From contig OZ242186.1 in NCBI GenBank assembly GCA_965205675.1, positions 896,001-960,000 on the forward strand: DNA of 64,000 bases, in the 5' to 3' direction. The first letter of the stretch is position 1. Each line of letters opens with the position of its first letter. The notes under the pieces were generated by a model. The model was not told the DNA's origin. It worked only from the letters and a program-made list of their open reading frames with translations, and did not search any database. Positions 30,494-64,000 of the stretch are shown piece after piece. The DNA is from Nitrosopumilus sp. GTDB taxonomy: Archaea > Thermoproteota > Nitrososphaeria > Nitrososphaerales > Nitrosopumilaceae. Both the position numbers and the translations under genes were made by a program.

Positions 30494-31356
30494 CCAAACA
30501 TAACGTCTTTCCCTCAATCTGAAGAAGATCAATATTTTGGGTCTCGAAGATTACACAGAACCTGGTCTTCGGATTCTGTTGTTGTATCCCAAAATCAGTT
30601 CGTCCCTTATTTGACATCGTATTCTTCTCCTGTCTGCTCATCAATAACTCTTGTTCCTTTCCCTGGCATCTTTCTTGCATATGCCTTTACAGGGGTCTCA
30701 AGATTATCCCAGTCAAGTGACATGTGTGGCTTTATGTGGTTGTACCAGTGGACCAGCTCATCAATGGTGCCAAACCATTTCTGCTTTCTCTGAATCTCGC
30801 CGTGAAATCTTTCGAGCTTGCCATTGGTTTGAGGATGGTTCACTCTTGCCATGATGTGTTTTATTCCAAGTCTAACCAGTTCTTGCTCAAACTGTGATGC
30901 TCCTTTTCTCTTGTATTCTGATTGGTTTGCATAAAATTGGGAGCCATGATCAGTTAGAATTGATGCAGGCCTACCGTGCTTTGCAATTGCCTCATGTAAT
31001 ACTACAAGTGCGTTATCTGTTGTTGCCTCTGCAAACACTCCATGAGAAACGATAAACCTTGATGCGTCATCCTGGTAACACAGAAACCATCTGCCATCGT
31101 CTAACTGCTTCCAGTCAGTATGCCACATGGAGTTTGAATATGTCCTTTCATATCTAACCCACTTTCGCCTTCTCCTCTTCTTTGGCTGATCTTCTGCCAA
31201 CCCCTCATCTCTCATAATTTTGTGTATGGTATTGTGAGGTATGTGTGTTCCAGTGGTATCAATTATTTTCTCCAGGAATACTGCAGAACACCTGAACTTT
31301 TCAAATGTAGACTGGACAGTCTGTACCATCTGCTCTGTAATTATCCATGTGAATTG

Positions 31357-31372
31357 TTTTTATACATTTCCT
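31357..31372 (-). promoter_or_regulatory. Outward-facing BRE/TATA at right end of IS110-B
   Basis: Minus strand reads aggaaatg-tataaaaa, about 15 nt inside the element end. Confidence 0.55.
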
Positions 31373-31379
31373 CTCTTTC

Positions 31380-31550
31380 CATACATCAGGGCATGGCTTT
31401 CGCTAGAGAATGGTTTCAATCAAAAGATGGCAGACATGTATCCATACGAGACTATTCTCTCAATGCTATCTTCATCCTAGTTAGGATTGTTCGCAGTTAT
31501 TAGACGAGGCCTTGTCCCTCAATAATTACAACGCGACTTGCAGTCCTAAC
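31380..31550 (-). ncRNA. Bridge/seek-type guide RNA of IS110-B (ends approximate)
   Basis: Stems tcgc/gcga, gagg/cctc, gaga/tctc; loop tgtaattat is the reverse complement of B's right flank ataattaca; atggata and atag match B's ends. Confidence 0.75.
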
Positions 31551-32660
31551 TATAATTTTGTACAAATTCTCTCCTCTCCTTTAACATCCAATAAATCACC
31601 CTCAGGATCTTTGATGCACCAGCTACTGCAGCTTTGGATGATCCTCTTTTCTTTTTAATGCGATTGTAAAATTTTGTAATGTCACTATCCTTGGCATGAA
31701 TTGCATGAGTGTGTATGCATTCTGTTAGAACCCATCTCAATGTCATGCTTCCCCTTTTTGTTATTCTGCCATGGTGTATTGTATCTGCAGAGTTTCTAAC
31801 TGATGGTACAACTCCTGCATATGCACACAGTTTGTGAGAATCATTGAATCTCTCAATATCTGCAATCTCTGATGCAATGACAAGCGAAGAATAATGCCCA
31901 ATTCCCGGAATCGAGTTTATCAAAATTGCATCAGGATTAACTTTTACAGCAGCATACACTTTGGAATTAATCTCTGCAATCTGTAAATTAAGGTGGCTGA
32001 TTTGTTGCAAGAATCCGTCTATTCTGTAATCTCCTAGTGCCTTGAGTCTTCTGTTGTATGTTTCAGTGAATGTAACTCCTGGAATCCTGATTCCTTCCTG
32101 TAACAATATTCCATGAACTGAATTCTTGACAGATGTTCTCCATTGGATTAGTTTTTTCCTATATCTTACAAGCTGTCTTTGTTGTACAATCTTTTTGTCT
32201 GGAACATAACATGTGGCAATGTATCCTCCTCGTAAAAGATCTGCCAATATCTTGGCATCAATCTTGTCTGTTTTCTTTTTTGATGTAGCAATTGCCTTTG
32301 TCAAATATGGGTTTGAGAGTGTGACGTTTTTGTATCCCAAAGTATCTGTGAGAAATCGATACGTGTCATACCAGACTGATGAGGATTCCATTACAATATT
32401 TGCAGAAATTGGTATTTTTGCAAAATGCTTTTTTATGGATTCATGCGTGTTATCCACTTTGTCATTTTGTAATACTTTGCCTGCATCATCCATTTATTAC
32501 TTGAAGAAACTTCTTGTGCAGGTCAATGCCCACAAACATGCCTTTCTTTGGATTTTTTCTAATCTGTTTGTTTGTAATCTTTTTTGGAGCCGAGTATTTA
32601 CGAACCTTGGAACTAGATTCATTTTTTATGCTATCTGATTTCCTTGCTTTCTTATTCACA

Positions 32661-33994
32661 TATCCATGTGAATCCCTTTTAACTATTGTCGGTATTTTTG
32701 CCATATTAATTACAGCTTACGCTAATACACTCATACTTTCAATCACAGATGAAACCAGACACATATCCATTCGGGGTTCTCCCCCAGTACCATCTTCATC
32801 CATTTATTAGGTGAAACCGCGGTTATAGTTTCGAGGTATTATGCATCCTCAATGTGAAAACGCGGCCAAACTCCTAACTGTAATGTTTTACAAATTATTG
32901 ATGACATTGAATAAATTCTCTCCTCTCCTTTAACATCCAATATATGACACGCAATAACTTTGATGCAGCAGCAACTGCTGCCTTTGAGGTCCCCCTCTTT
33001 TTCTTAATGCGATTATAAAATTTTGTAATGTCGCTATCTGGTGCGTATCTAACATGTGCATGAATTGCCTCCACTAGCAACCATCTTAGCATGGTGCTTC
33101 CTCTCTTTGTAATTCTTCCGTGATGTATTGTATCTGCAGAATTTCTCACCGATGGAACAATCCCTGCATATGCACATAACTTGTGAGAATTTGAAAATCT
33201 GCTAATCTCTGCAATTTCTGAGAATATGCTCAATGCAGTGTATGGTCCAACTCCAGGTATTGATGTCAAAATACACACATCAGAATTATCATTTACCATG
33301 CGACGTATCATGGAATCTATCTTTGCAACCTCCTTTTTGTGAAATTTTATGCTTTGTAGGTACGAATCTATTCTATAACTCTCCAATTTTCCAAGTGCAC
33401 GTATGTGTTCTGAGGAAAATGGTGTTGCTTTGATATGGATTCCCTCCTGTAGTGTAATACCATGTATGGAATTCTTCATCTTTACAATGATGCGCACAAT
33501 CTTGTGTCGATGTCTTACAAGCTGTCTGTATTGCACAATTGTGTGATCTGGCACAAATGATTCTGCAATGTATCCCTCCTCGTAGCAAATTTGCAAGATG
33601 GTACGCATCAATTTTATCAGTCTTTTTGAGTGATGATGCTATTATCTTTGTGTTGTATGGATTAGATAGTATAACATCAAGATGTAATTTGTCTGTCATG
33701 TGTCTATAAAGGCCATACCAGACAGATGATGACTCTAAAACATATTTTGCGTTCTTTGGAATTTTGGATGTAATTTTGCTAATAGCAGAAAAATCACTGG
33801 AAATCTTTTTGTTAAATAATAATTTGCCAATCTCATCTACTGCTGCCACCTGTACAGAGTTCTTGTGAACATCCAATCCTACAAACATCAAATATTTTTT
33901 TTCAGGAAGGGTAGTGTGTTTGTTTGCATTTCTTACTTTCTTGATACGAATGCAAGTACCATCTAATTTCCTAGCTGATTTTGGCACATATGGT
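32661..33994 (-). mobile_element. IS110/IS1111-type element A, copy 1 (1334 bp)
   Basis: VGLDVH, VLESS, KTDKIDA, SVRNSA; near-identical to 57076-58409; transposase 32895-33987 with a frameshift. Confidence 0.95.
32705..32885 (-). ncRNA. Bridge/seek-type guide RNA of IS110-A, copy 1 (ends approximate)
   Basis: Reverse complement of the copy-2 RNA at 58185-58365. Confidence 0.75.
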
Positions 33995-34155
33995 TATAGT
34001 TATTCCCTTTGGCCTTCCAGGCTTGCCTAGAATCGGAATTGCACCAGTACGGCGATACCGTGAGTAGAGTTTCTGCACCCACCGAACAGATATCTTCATG
34101 GATGAGGCTACGTCTGCGTTCTTGGCACCATCCTCTTTTGACTTGATTATCCAGG

Positions 34156-35545
34156 GTAACTGTCTAGAGTTTTGAAGTAAAATCTCCAAGATATTCTAAA
34201 GAATAATCATGAAAGTTTAATCCTCGTAATCTGCATGTCTCCTTTATACTCATCAGTATCTTATGAGAATCAGCACCATGAATGGTTCTATGACCGTTTG
34301 TAATTTTACGAATTATCACATTTGGTCTGATTGCCCTCTCTGCTGTGTTATTGTGTGAATCAGTTCCAGTAATTAGGAATGTAAAAAGCATTTTTCTCTC
34401 ACGTTTCAATCTTTTTACAAACCTGATACAGTTTTTCTCTGTGTATTTTTTTGATATGATGTGATTAATTCTCCTTTCAAGATTCTTTTTTGCATGGATT
34501 CTTTCTGATTCTGATTTTATTTTTGCCACACCATGAGAGTCATAAATTATTTTCTTGAGATTCTTGGCAAATGGTGCAAATTCTGGTCCGGGATTCTTGT
34601 GATTAATGGTATCATTAACCTCTCTGAGATAATGGATGTGACATTTCTGGTGAGTGCTTCCAACATGGTTCCATGCAGGGTACGAATCACTTGTAATGTT
34701 GCCATCATATCCCTTGAGAATTCTCTTGGGAACATCCATTGAACGTGATTTGTCAATCTCGTAAATTACAGTCCATTTACTCACAAATGCCCACAACCAG
34801 TGGTTCTGGCCATCTACCCTCCAACTTGTCTCATCACCATGTATGTTTAGATCTTCTTTTAACTCCACAATCATTGTATCATATCTGCTCCCAAATGCTT
34901 TTGATACTATTGATACTGCATGATTAATTGCAGATTCTGTAATGTGCAGTGAGAAGAGCATCTGCAAAAGATGAGATATTTTACCATACGATAATCCGAT
35001 AGTTTTTAGTGATGTGATTAGCACCATGAGCCTAATTCCAAACCTTTCATTTGACAGTACAGTGTGAATGTTACCCGAGATTTGTTTTTTGCAGTTTGTG
35101 CAGTATCGTCTAACTATCGTATATTTTGTCACAACTGCTTTTGCAGGAATGATGTCTTCTACTATTCTGGTGTATGAATCAGTTGGTTCTGAGAGTGATT
35201 TGCCACATGTGTTGCACTCTTTTTGGTCAACTGTAATGGCATCATCAATGTGTGCCCGTCTGCTTCTGCTTTTTCTAGGATGTCTTGATGTTTTCTTCTT
35301 TTTTGCAGTTTCAGTCTTGTTTGGTTTTGCTTTGATATTTCTTGCAACAAGTGTAGACACTGTTTGTTTTAGTTCTGCAATTTCTCTGTGTAACTGACGG
35401 TTTTCTTGCTCCAACGAGTGACATCTGTTGCGATAATATTCCAGCTCATCATATACTGACAATTGTATATTGTAATTTGTCACTGATCAGAAAAGATATA
35501 GATAAAAAATATTAAAGAAAGTACTTCAAAACTCTAGACAGTTAC
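34156..35545 (-). mobile_element. IS66-family single-ORF element; transposase 34164-35483 intact
   Basis: 24-bp perfect TIR gtaactgtctagagttttgaagta, 8-bp TSD tatccagg; HGDETSW, HQKCHIH, NNTAERAIRP. Confidence 0.95.
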
Positions 35546-35663
35546 TATCCAGGATATCTGGATTGGATCTAACTTTTGCATAATCTTGTGATTCTTTCCT
35601 CTTTTCCAAACGTATCTTGACTTTAGTCTGGAAATGATGGGGTGAACTAATTTGAGGATAATA

Positions 35664-56984: not shown

Positions 56985-57033
56985 GATATGGTTTTTTGCC
57001 AAGAGTAGTTTTTGATTTTGTGCATTTTTGATA

Positions 57034-57081
57034 CTTGCACTTGTACTTGCACTTGTACTTGCACTTGTAACCATAACCATA
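57034..57081 (+). repeat. Hexamer-phased array (cttgca cttgta)x3 (accata)x2 at IS110 left junction
   Basis: Read directly from sequence. Confidence 0.95.
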
Positions 57082-58409
57082 TGTGCCAAAATCAGCTAGG
57101 AAATTAGATGGTACTTGCATTCGTATCAAGAAAGTAAGAAATGCAAACAAACACACTACCCTTCCTGAAAAAAAATATTTGATGTTTGTAGGATTGGATG
57201 TTCACAAGAACTCTGTACAGGTGGCAGCAGTAGATGAGATTGGCAAATTATTATTTAACAAAAAGATTTCCAGTGATTTTTCTGCTATTAGCAAAATTAC
57301 ATCCAAAATTCCAAAGAACGCAAAATATGTTTTAGAGTCATCATCTGTCTGGTATGGCCTTTATAGACACATGACAGACAAATTACATCTTGATGTTATA
57401 CTATCTAATCCATACAACACAAAGATAATAGCATCATCACTCAAAAAGACTGATAAAATTGATGCGTACCATCTTGCAAATTTGCTACGAGGAGGGATAC
57501 ATTGCAGAATCATTTGTGCCAGATCACACAATTGTGCAATACAGACAGCTTGTAAGACATCGACACAAGATTGTGCGCATCATTGTAAAGATGAAGAATT
57601 CCATACATGGTATTACACTACAGGAGGGAATCCATATCAAAGCAACACCATTTTCCTCAGAACACATACGTGCACTTGGAAAATTGGAGAGTTATAGAAT
57701 AGATTCGTACCTACAAAGCATAAAATTTCACAAAAAGGAGGTTGCAAAAATAGATTCCATGATACGTCGCATGGTAAATGATAATCCTGATGTGTGTATT
57801 TTGACATCAATACCTGGAGTTGGACCATACACTGCATTGAGCATATTCTCAGAAATTGCAGAGATTAGTAGATTTTCAAATTCTCACAAGTTATGTGCAT
57901 ATGCAGGGATTGTTCCATCGGTGAGAAATTCTGCAGATACAATACATCACGGAAGAATTACAAAGAGAGGAAGCACCATGCTAAGATGGTTGCTAGTGGA
58001 GGCAATTCATGCACATGTTAGATACGCACCAGATAGCGACATTACAAAATTTTATAATCGCATTAAGAAAAAGAGAGGGACCTCAAAGGCAGCAGTTGCT
58101 GCTGCATCAAAGTTATTGCGTGTCATATATTGGATGCTAAAAGAGAGGAGAGAATTTATTCAATGTCATCAATAATTTGTAAAACATTACAGTTAGGAGT
58201 TTGGCCGCGTTTTCACATTGAGGATGCATAATACCTCGAAACTATAACCGCGGTTTCACCTAATAAATGGATGAAGATGGTACTGGGGGAGAACCCCGAA
58301 TGGATATGTGTCTGGTTTCATCTGTGATTGAAAGTATGAGTGTATTAGCGTAAGCTGTAATTAATATGGCAAAAATACCGACAATAGTTAAAAGGGATTC
58401 ACATGGATA
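57076..58409 (+). mobile_element. IS110/IS1111-type element A, copy 2 (1334 bp)
   Basis: Starts accata-tgtgcc, ends ttcacatggata; transposase 57083-58175 with the same frameshift as copy 1. Confidence 0.95.
58185..58365 (+). ncRNA. Bridge/seek-type guide RNA of IS110-A, copy 2 (ends approximate)
   Basis: Loop 1: ccgcg[ttcacat]gagg..cctc[aactata]cgcgg; loop 2: gatgaa[atggt]gggg..cccc[atggata]..ttcatc. Confidence 0.78.
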
Positions 58410-58612
58410 TGTGAATAAACAACGAAATTTAGATGGTACTGCTGATTCTATAGTTTCTAAAAGATACATCTCCAAGAAAAAGCCAAAGAAAATCATTAGA
58501 GCTAGAAAGACAAAACCCATGACCTATGTCGGAATTGATTTGCACAAAGAATTCTTACAGGTCGAAACAATGGATGATAAAGGACATACATTATTCAATG
58601 AAAAAATTACAA
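58410..58612 (+). pseudogene. 5' part of a third IS110 (element C), truncated by IS630
   Basis: Starts tgtgaata like B; YVGIDLHKEFLQV..MDDKG. Confidence 0.85.
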
Positions 58613-59758
58613 TAGTTTAGGCATATAAATTTTGAACGAATTATCAACTATTTTAACCCAAAAGATCTAGATCATAGTTTATACTTACAGAATCATGTCA
58701 AAACAAACTAAAGCATTAATGGTATCTTCAGGAAGCCATTTCATGAAAGGAACAAGCATTAATTTTTTAAGAAAAACATGCAAGAATGAAAAAAATGCAA
58801 AAGCAAAGATAAGATTAAAGGCTGCAATACTAAGAAAACAAGATATTCCATATTCTGTGATATGTGCCAGTTTGGATGTCATACCATCAACTCTGTCCTA
58901 CTGGCTAAATCGAATGGATAAAGAGGGAATAACTGCATCACACCGTAAGGAATATTCTGGCTCTAGATGTTTCTTAAATAAAAAACAACTAGTGTCATTA
59001 AGAGATGATCTAATTTCAGGTCCAGAAAAGTTTGGATTCAATCAATTCATGTGGAGTACAAGAATGGTAATTACACATGTGAATAAAAAATACAACACGC
59101 TATACTCTGCAAGAGGAATGCGTGAATTGCTGCACAGAATCGGATTCTCATCTAAAAAACCAAGACAGACTCATCACAAATCAGCCTCAAAAGAGGAACA
59201 AACCCGTTTTAAAAAAACGCAAAAAGGAGTATCAAAAAATATTCCAAATTGGGATACACCACACTATGTCTGGATGAGTCAACAAATAAAGTAGCACCCA
59301 ACATAAAGCGCAGATGGTATCTTGCAGGCAATAACATTACCACACCAATTAATTACACTCGAGAAAAATTTCAATCATTTGGTGCATTGGGCAATAACGG
59401 TGTATTTTTTTGCAGGTTCTATGATAAATCAAACACAGACTCATTTCTTGATTTTTTAGAATCACTGCAAAAACAATTTGGTAAGAAATTGTTACTGTTT
59501 GCAGATAATGCATCATACCACAAAAGTCTCAGAGTAAAAGAATTTCTCAAAGCACCAAAAAATAAAGTAATAATTAGATATTTTCCTGCATACACACCAG
59601 AACTCAATCCAATTGAGATACAGTGGAGAGAAGAGAAAAATGGTAATGCCAATACATTCTTTGCAAATGGAACTGAAATGAAAAAACACATGCAGAAGAG
59701 ACTAGATAATGGAGCGGTTCGAGTTGTTAAAGTATTCAAATATTTAATGCCTTAACTA
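58613..59758 (+). mobile_element. IS630-family element; ORFs 58695-59294 and 59249-59755 joined by probable -1 frameshift
   Basis: Imperfect TIR tagtttaggcat / atgccttaacta; ttttaaaaaaac slippery run at about 59207-59218; LDES, DNASYH, PAYTPELNPIE. Confidence 0.9.
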
Positions 59759-59941
59759 TATCCTTTGATAAACGTAAAATCTAGCAAGAGAATCAAAATC
59801 CTTGAATCCTAATGCCTTTGCAAGTATGGGATTAATTGCACTTTCATCAATCATTCTTTCAGCAGATAATTTTTCAATAATTACGGATGCATTCTTTACA
59901 AAATTTGCCAGAAGTTCCTCAATTTGTGCCTCTTTTGACAT
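59756..59941 (-). pseudogene. N-terminal fragment of a putative restriction endonuclease, cut by IS630
   Basis: ORF downstream of the C5 MTase; its stop falls inside the IS630 end. Confidence 0.5.
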
Positions 59942-63226: not shown

Positions 63227-64000
63227 GTAACTGTCTAGAGTTTTGAAGTACTTTCTTTAATATTTTTTATCTATATCTTTTCTGATCAGTGACAAATTAC
63301 AATATACAATTGTCAGTATATGATGAGCTGGAATATTATCGTAACAGATGTCACTCGTTGGAGCAAGAAAACCGTCAGTTACACAGAGAAATTGCAGAAC
63401 TAAAACAAACAGTGTCTACACTTGTTGCAAGAAATATCAAAGCAAAACCAAACAAGACTGAAACTGCAAAAAAGAAGAAAACATCAAGACATCCTAGAAA
63501 AAGCAGAAGCAGACGGGCACACATTGATGATGCCATTACAGTTGACCAAAAAGAGTGCAACACATGTGGCAAATCACTCTCAGAACCAACTGATTCATAC
63601 ACCAGAATAGTAGAAGACATCATTCCTGCAAAAGCAGTTGTGACAAAATATACGATAGTTAGACGATACTGCACAAACTGCAAAAAACAAATCTCGGGTA
63701 ACATTCACACTGCGCTACCCAATGAGAGATTTGGGATTAGGCTCATGGTGCTAATCACATCACTAAAAACTATCGGATTATCGTATGGTAAAATATCTCA
63801 TCTTTTGCAGATGCTCTTCTCACTGCACATTACAGAATCTGCAATTAATCATGCAGTATCAATAGTATCAAAAGCATTTGGGAGCAGATATGATACAATG
63901 ATTGTGGAGTTAAAAGAAGATCTAAACATACATGGTGATGAGACAAGTTGGAGGGTAGATGGCCAGAACCACTGGTTGTGGGCATTTGTGAGTAAATGGA
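63227..64000 (+). mobile_element. Second IS66 copy (partial; transposase from 63289)
   Basis: Same TIR and near-identical sequence to 34156-35545, inverted. Confidence 0.95.

Follow-up and report, generated by a model that had tools for sequence, protein, structure and literature searches.

The window analysed here is a 64,000-nt stretch of DNA (G000:C1:896001-960000) from a Nitrosopumilus sp. whose 2.01-Mb genome, G000, is a single contig. An archaeal AmoA is encoded in the genome, which identifies this organism as an ammonia-oxidising archaeon. The window carries two copies of a 1334-bp insertion sequence (IS), which we call element A. Copy 1 (32661..33994, minus strand) is nested in a second IS, element B. 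Copy 2 (57076..58409, plus strand), 99.55% identical to copy 1, is nested in a fragment of a third IS, element C. Both copies lie within an inverted repeat, I1, with arms at 32652-34002 and 57068-58418 (1351 nt, 99% complementary). An initial annotation of this DNA proposed that A is an IS110 element with a guide RNA programmed to colonise the left ends of sister IS110 elements.

Anatomy of the nested elements

Element A has a DEDD transposase gene with a guide RNA region downstream. PF01548 (DEDD_Tnp_IS110) was identified in the first open reading frame (ORF1, E = 5e-14) and PF02371 (Transposase_20) in ORF2 (E = 5e-23). The coding DNA ends at position 1097 of 1334, leaving ~234 nt of non-coding DNA downstream compared with ~100 nt upstream. 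A, B, C and ten relatives all have subterminal repeats, with ATGTG(AA) at 5 nt from the left tip and TTCACAT at the same distance from the right one. A downstream non-coding region and subterminal repeats are hallmarks of IS1111 elements according to the seekRNA study (PMC11187229). The flank tables show that insertion of A is site- and orientation-specific, with no target duplication beyond a shared core. In the guide RNA, TTCACAT lies 5' and AACTATA lies 3', the two overlapping at the core A. The protein pieces of A are 58-62% identical to the transposases of B and C. Judged by these features, A is an IS1111-type member of the IS110 family. The downstream non-coding region and subterminal repeats correct the initial annotation, which had called the elements IS110, to the IS1111 type.

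In element orientation, and with junctions marked by a slash, copy 1 reads ggaATA/ACTATA/ACCATATGTGCC...A...TTCACATGGATA/TGTGAATAAGAAAGC, followed by B. The corresponding reading for copy 2 is cttgTA/ACCATA/ACCATATGTGCC...A...TTCACATGGATA/TGTGAATAAACAACG, followed by C. The hexamers to the left of A were compared with undisturbed host copies. Five solo B copies read xAATA/ACTATA TGTGAATAAG...CACATGGATA/ATTAYA. Four C copies read xGTA/ACCATA TGTGAATAAAC, with the right end ...CACATAGATA/TGT.. (TGT in 3 of the 4). Since ACTATA and ACCATA are present in these B and C copies, the hexamers belong to the hosts as their left tips, and A is inserted 6 nt further in. The flanks confirm that the two hosts differ, as first described, and removing A restores the end seen in solo B.

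The B left tip is at 33995..34000 (minus strand), cut by A from the B body (1319 bp, 31342..32660, minus strand); in solo B, ACTATA is directly followed by TGTGAATAAG. The guide RNA region of B is at 31417-31553 (minus strand). BLAST against G000, used to count copies of both A and B, identified 10 full B copies. Pfam places both DEDD_Tnp_IS110 and Transposase_20 in B. A 2-nt deletion (window positions 32495-32497), present in 8 of the 10 copies including that in the window, removes the N-terminal 56 residues with the GIDLHK motif. The transposase is intact in two copies (617126 and 1109371). Contigs of public sequencing runs contain both the deleted and the intact allele. B is often inserted in repeated DNA: an IS481-like gene and two further families of repeats, all of them hit at least twice. 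The flanks in these other families are ...caaatccaata/attacaattga... and ...ttttttccaata/attacataaaatt...

The C left tip is at 57070..57075 (plus strand) and is preceded by the C-type flank GTA. Beyond A, C continues at 58410..58612 (plus strand). This fragment corresponds to C positions 1-203 and is ended by an IS630-like element. The transposase is intact in three full C copies. C and B are 68% identical at the nucleotide level and have 9 nt in common at the A junction. A tandem repeat, (CACTTGTACTTG)n, occupies window positions 57024-57069, directly upstream of the C left tip, and supplies the GTA of the C target.

The IS481-like element that contains copy 1 and B is split by them. Contigs of four public runs join position 31340 to 34000, skipping exactly the 2659 bp of A plus B, to give GGAATAATTACAG and an uninterrupted IS481-like frame. 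The joint retains a single ATA. This is the frame restoration that the initial annotation had expected of B removal. No empty copy of the IS481 insertion site was found in G000.

All 8 full A copies in G000 carry one extra G at A position 421 (GGAGGGATAC), which divides the gene into ORFs of 204 aa and 238 aa. By copy comparison, GGG replaces the GG of the in-frame allele at 33574..33576 (minus strand) in copy 1 and near 57494-57496 (plus strand) in copy 2. Two A copies have additional 3-nt deletions at the same site. A ninth copy is without the extra G but is split there by a 1.1-kb IS with terminal inverted repeats. This IS (G000:C1:442702-443801, TACTYYCTAACA..., with an apparent ATA duplication) lies exactly at the A frameshift site. 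At 483856, the insertion point of a C copy is the extreme tip of a terminus similar to that of the 1.1-kb IS. The in-frame A allele is the sole allele seen in contigs of runs X1 and X2, the major allele in X3, and the state of all four copies in a related metagenome-assembled genome (MAG). Because in-frame alleles exist elsewhere, A is normally an autonomous element, and its defect belongs to this assembly. We considered programmed +1 frameshifting at GGAGGGATAC but dropped it, given these in-frame alleles and the two copies with further 3-nt deletions.

Target sites and guides of element A

The flanks of A were tabulated across G000, where BLAST detected 8 full-length copies (98.8-100% identical) plus several that are partial or diverged. 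All 14 left ends of A and A-like copies are preceded by AACTATA or AACCATA. An older lineage, A' (~82% identical to A), is represented by three fragments, and each is likewise preceded by AACYATA. In total, 17/17 left ends of the A lineage adjoin the 6-nt tip, ACTATA or ACCATA, of a B/C-type element. Similarly, 9/9 intact right ends adjoin TGTGAATAA. The same fixed position, as for IS that target the ends of other elements, was found for the one A relative in G374, a genome of another species of the genus, and for all four A copies of the MAG. This flank pattern is far beyond chance. It agrees with the aacYata/tgtgaa flanks that the initial annotation predicted, and in none of G000, G374 and the MAG do the A copies lie mostly at unrelated sites. 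The 13-mers AACTATATGTGAA (n=6) and AACCATATGTGAA (n=4) occur in the genome only as B/C left ends. In a contig of run X6, at the place of window position 32660, an A right end that differs at just 1 of 198 nt adjoins ACTGAATATTATG instead of TGTGAA.

The guide RNA region of A was compared with those of relatives. Of 251 genomes of the taxonomic family that were searched at the protein level, 31 contained relatives. Ten relative loci were taken, at 51-65% identity, by local tblastn; an eleventh, L034, was dropped as extraction of its end motifs failed. All ten have a left end of the form TA/ACCATATGTG (three variants), a right end CACATRGATA (with variants in L036 and L038) and a conserved downstream non-coding region. 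The ends common to the ten relatives indicate that the core is the dinucleotide TA. When 11 non-coding regions were aligned, the consensus structure showed two modules of equivalent build, in which stems around a hairpin close an internal loop. The consensus has 27 pairs, 15 of which are kept through changes on both sides among the 11 family members.

The first module of A, predicted to bind the target, is at 58192..58264 (plus strand). It has an outer stem (GTTAGG with CCTAAT), an inner stem (GCCGCG with CCGCGG) and a hairpin (GAGG..CCTC). The 5' side of its loop holds TTCACAT (58212..58218), complementary to the top strand of the right half-site A/TGTGAA. The 3' side holds AACTATA (58240..58246), which reads in the same sense as the left half-site together with the core TA. 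The initial annotation had put both motifs in one internal loop at these positions, and the consensus of 11 members agrees: they lie on its two sides, in the same register as the donor guides of the second module.

The second module (58269..58313, plus strand) was assigned from the consensus structure and its match to the ends of A. Its 5' loop carries ATGGT (58277-58281), the reverse complement of the A left end ACCAT. Its 3' loop carries ATGGATA (58300-58306), equal to the A right end. Across the family this 3' loop reads ATGGATA or ATAGATA, and in 13/13 elements the G or A varies with the right end of the element itself, which is CACATGGATA or CACATAGATA. On this covariation, the second module is the donor loop. 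The loops of the first module are variable. On the 3' side they copy the left flank as far as the core TA (ACGCATA, GTCAATA, GGAACTA and CAGATTA are examples), and on the 5' side they carry the right flank in reverse complement. The cognate match between guides and flanks summed to 151 for 13 elements, and none of 20,000 flank permutations reached this value.

The target guides of A match AACTATA/TGTGAA over 7+7 nt, which is perfect for B-type left ends, and the guide part is identical in all nine A-type guide regions of G000. The canonical B guides are TGTAAT and TCTAATA, for the B site TCTAATA/ATTACA. A B variant at 754516 has the guide TGAAAT and the right flank ATTTCA, in place of the canonical TGTAAT and ATTACA; read from the sequences, this paired shift is a natural co-change of guide and target. 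According to PMC11187229, the IS1111 seekRNA has its top-strand match 5' of its bottom-strand match, the two overlapping in the target. The order of the A guides fits this arrangement. A handshake between the target and the TGTG that follows ATGGATA in the donor loop was also considered. This was dropped, as TGTCY pairs with GGATG in a conserved stem and the match is not shown by B or the relatives.

Hosts, composites and neighbouring elements

Several hosts lie beside A in G000. B haplotype I is represented by five full copies, haplotype II is found at 63k and 40k, and a third B haplotype is found at 571k. B', which is 87% identical to B and has a different guide, lies beside A at 755k, and C is a further host. 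The A relative in G374 is 88% identical to A, reads ...tcTA/ACTATA/A-like/TGTGAATAAAGAACG and lies inside an element 79% identical to C. It keeps both guides, and its donor hairpin is changed on both sides. Since the hosts comprise three B haplotypes, B', C and this C-like element, A entered such left ends several times.

All five full B copies linked to A are of one haplotype and differ from all five solo copies at B positions 103, 106, 109, 226, 231 and 232. The A-B composites of this haplotype occupy at least three B-type targets (AATA/ATTAYA): the IS481 gene, 1667k and 1503k. The 1667k site is in a repeat that was also hit by a solo B of the other haplotype. If A had entered resident B copies at random, we estimate by our own arithmetic, on 3 of 8 loci, that such a haplotype split would arise about 1 time in 56. 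The donor guides of B read only the first few bases of an end, and the nest retains these bases. Because one B haplotype is present at several B-type sites, and the split is unlikely by chance, the 2659-bp nest appears to have been moved as a unit by B-type machinery. The initial annotation had noted that the composite keeps the outer ends of B, so that B machinery could move A; the distribution of this haplotype bears that out. As a correction to that annotation, many A-B pairs share a B haplotype and are therefore not independent insertions.

The IS481 element with its nest has itself been copied and is found at 929k, 444k and the left side of 996k. Extra hexamers precede some A copies, in the forms ACTATA-ACCATA-A and ACCATA-ACCATA-A. 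These would fit insertion of A into another A or a C-type end, with one copy then lost by recombination. Hybrids in which A(1-1088) is joined to B(789-1319) occur at 755k, 566k and 60k, and look like internal deletions of A-B nests. The element at G000:C1:754380-755683 is a hybrid of A (1-1088) with the B variant carrying the guide TGAAAT.

A was not found (>80% identity) in the 60 relatives first searched, and the nested-end signature ACYATAACCATATGTG is present in 2 of 401 genomes of the family. Among the matches listed in scans of genome and metagenome contigs, which were mostly chance hits, 4 of 227 loci had similarity to A, B or C, all in one Nitrosopumilus MAG record. This record has four in-frame A copies, 96-99% identical to A. 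Each follows ACCATA or ACTATA-ACCATA, and G000 contains none of their left flanks. A different arrangement was seen at locus L098 (Nitrosopumilus MAG) and in run X2: A sequence to position 1248, then a C-like last ~90 nt (right end CACATAGATA), all within a B-like left end. Its sequence suggests a recombinant of A and C, with a donor guide that has ceased to match the right end of the element itself. L041 (G184:C2:186565-190530) has a head-to-tail pair of different IS110-family transposase genes, ~60-120 nt apart, and the pair is present three times in G184. Neither the CACATRGATA right-end motif nor the GATGAAG scaffold motif was found in G184.

The remaining elements in the window surround the two nests. 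The IS481-like element is on the minus strand, its integrase-core part (rve) at 30560..31341 and its N-terminal helix-turn-helix part at 34001..34163, as assigned from Pfam and the empty-site joint. It is interrupted again by an IS66-like element at 34164-35545 and resumes at 35546. The IS66-like element encodes a 439-aa transposase (PF03050, zf-IS66) and has terminal inverted repeats GTAACTGTCTAGAG... and an 8-bp duplication, TATCCAGG. A second copy is at 63227-64000. The other two copies of the IS481 nest are without the IS66-like insertion. The element that cuts C after 203 bp is at 58613-59760 and has two overlapping ORFs (58695-59294 and 59249-59755); we take it to be IS630-like by the look of its protein.

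Origin and significance of the nesting

We propose that the target loop of a seekRNA, or bridge RNA, encoded downstream of the A transposase gene is programmed for AAC(T or C)ATA/TGTGAA, the left end of B and C. Recombination at the internal TA of the host end would then place A 6 nt inside the host and always in host orientation. The terminal hexamer of the host would remain outside A, and the host would retain its own guide RNA and right end. Because hexamer, guide RNA and right end are kept, the nested A-B unit should be movable whole by B-type machinery to AATA/ATTAYA sites. Overall, we consider it highly probable that A is an RNA-guided IS1111-type IS targeting sister left ends, and that the nested unit can be moved by B-type machinery. 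We infer from the sequence comparisons that the RNA is made, that it guides the transposase and that the composite transposes. The covariation of loop positions with flanks, the 7+7 nt match and the several hosts are as expected from the programming that the initial annotation suggested.

Several observations weigh against this proposal. Ten perfect target sites, the 13-mers given above, lack A in G000, and a contig of run X6 has an A-like right end followed by ACTGAATATT rather than TGTGAA. C-type left ends match the left guide of A at 6 of 7 positions (7 of 7 for the right guide). With all 8 full copies frameshifted and the ninth split, A is unable to act alone in this assembly. The shared haplotype means that few insertion events lie behind most of the genome's A-B pairs, and recombination between copies has shuffled contexts, for example at 996k and 571k, which blurs the count of independent events. 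Single-sequence minimum free energy folds of the A and B non-coding regions were no better than shuffles (z = 0.33 and -1.2), so the predicted RNA structure rests on the alignment. Rfam 15 identified no family in window positions 57000-58700 (best E = 0.11, far below the gathering score), and the matches listed in a search of public runs for A included no RNA run.

One alternative is a single chance insertion of A beside B, followed only by amplification of the A-B unit by B machinery, hitch-hiking with IS481 and homologous recombination; the guide match would be a coincidence and A would not favour IS ends. Such a history could account for the one B haplotype in all five full composites, the threefold presence of the IS481 nest and the recombinant look of the 996k and 571k contexts. 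It does not explain why A has the same position in C, which is only 68% identical to B and shares 9 nt at the junction, or why B haplotype II, B' and, in another species, a C-like host also have A there. Nor does it explain a 7+7 nt match exactly at the loop positions that track flanks in 13 relatives, and we regard it as very unlikely. Equally improbable is capture driven by the host, in which the B recombinase and its RNA took A by half-match recombination, as for expanded IS110 loci (Hu et al., 2026). A and B do have the right end TTCACATGGATA in common and nearly identical left ends, and that preprint reports one-sided donor matches at internal boundaries. At the nest boundary, however, the junction fits both halves of the A loop, whereas the B target loop (TGTAAT and TCTAATA) mismatches AACTATA/TGTGAA. 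The same junction is also present in C, the target loop of which differs.

The loop with TTCACAT and AACTATA might instead be a second donor loop that reads the conserved subterminal repeat, the nesting having another cause. TTCACAT does also occur in the A right end, and ATGTG in the left end. Yet this loop is variable in the ten relatives, B and C, and it matches each element's own flanks rather than the conserved ends. Those ends are read by the other loop (ATGGT and ATRGATA), which covaries with the right end in 13/13 elements. Hence, we give this explanation hardly any weight. A different possibility concerns the present way of life of A. The A lineage might be a dedicated hyperparasite with a dead transposase, supplying guide RNA and ends, borrowing a B- or C-type transposase and travelling as cargo in B; we think this unlikely. 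In the seekRNA study, transposase and RNA act in trans on cargo that has only the ends, and similar seekRNAs accompany transposases that are only 46% identical (PMC11187229). By analogy, use of the A RNA by sister enzymes is conceivable.

The targeting of one IS by another has precedents. IS1383, an IS110-family element, reportedly uses the IS1384 inverted repeats as its integration site in Pseudomonas putida H. IS1384 is a member of another IS family. We know of no guide-level explanation that existed when this targeting was published. A resembles IS1383 in having the end of another IS as its specific target. The hosts of A are not of a different family: both B and C are of A's own kind, having the transposase identity given above and the same ends and RNA scaffold. 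Partridge and Hall are said to have described in 2003 the targeting of Tn21 terminal repeats by IS4321/IS5075.

According to PMC11187229, IS4321/IS5075 and relatives target the Tn21 terminal repeats. Like these, A is of the IS1111 type, has a downstream guide region and inserts at one place and in one orientation within another mobile element's end; the seekRNA has the same order, with the top-strand match 5' of the bottom-strand match. Conversely, the hosts of IS4321/IS5075 are bacterial Tn3-family transposons, which are mechanistically unrelated, whereas those of A are archaeal sister IS1111-type elements. In addition, the target of A overlaps the donor end that the host reads by RNA, and the nested pair shares end sequences. 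In ISPpu9, duplicated end boxes permit alternative circles, and an adjacent module moves alone or with the IS (PMC12288879). The A-B nest offers a similar choice, A alone or the whole unit. The ISPpu9 module, by contrast, is a small RNA gene and ISPpu9 targets REP, whereas A is a second complete IS with its own guide. Expanded and tandem IS110 loci arise by repeated insertion into occupied loci and form multi-copy composites (Hu et al., 2026; bioRxiv 10.64898/2026.08.14.744561). These involve one-sided donor half-matches and the same element in tandem, unlike the distinct element A with a full two-sided target match.

Our literature search found no IS1111-type element aimed at sister left ends, and none in archaea, although the target logos and ISfinder-wide tables of PMC11187229 and PMC11208160 may list other IS-end targets. 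An archaeal IS survey touches only briefly on IS110 and on an IS-rich Nitrosopumilus genome. The initial annotation knew of no described case. Because this family has already been described to target the ends of IS and transposons (IS1383/IS1384 and IS4321/IS5075), that claim of novelty was too strong.

Bridge RNA and seekRNA recombinases are studied as programmable genome-writing tools, and the natural evolution of their guides is little understood. Element A would be a natural example, from an ammonia-oxidising archaeon, of a guide whose target has become the donor end of sister elements. Together, A, B, B' and C are matched pairs of guide and target for studying specificity rules and the cross-use of RNAs and enzymes. 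Nesting yields elements with two guide RNAs and two sets of ends. Since the target overlaps a sequence that the host element itself needs, the logic of an arms race is suggested. Were the hyperparasite possibility true, A would be an RNA-only parasite of RNA-guided transposons, with a guide aimed at a sequence that the sister element could not alter without losing donor recognition. More broadly, IS-in-IS nesting shapes IS-rich Nitrosopumilus genomes and complicates both the annotation of IS and the counting of their copies.

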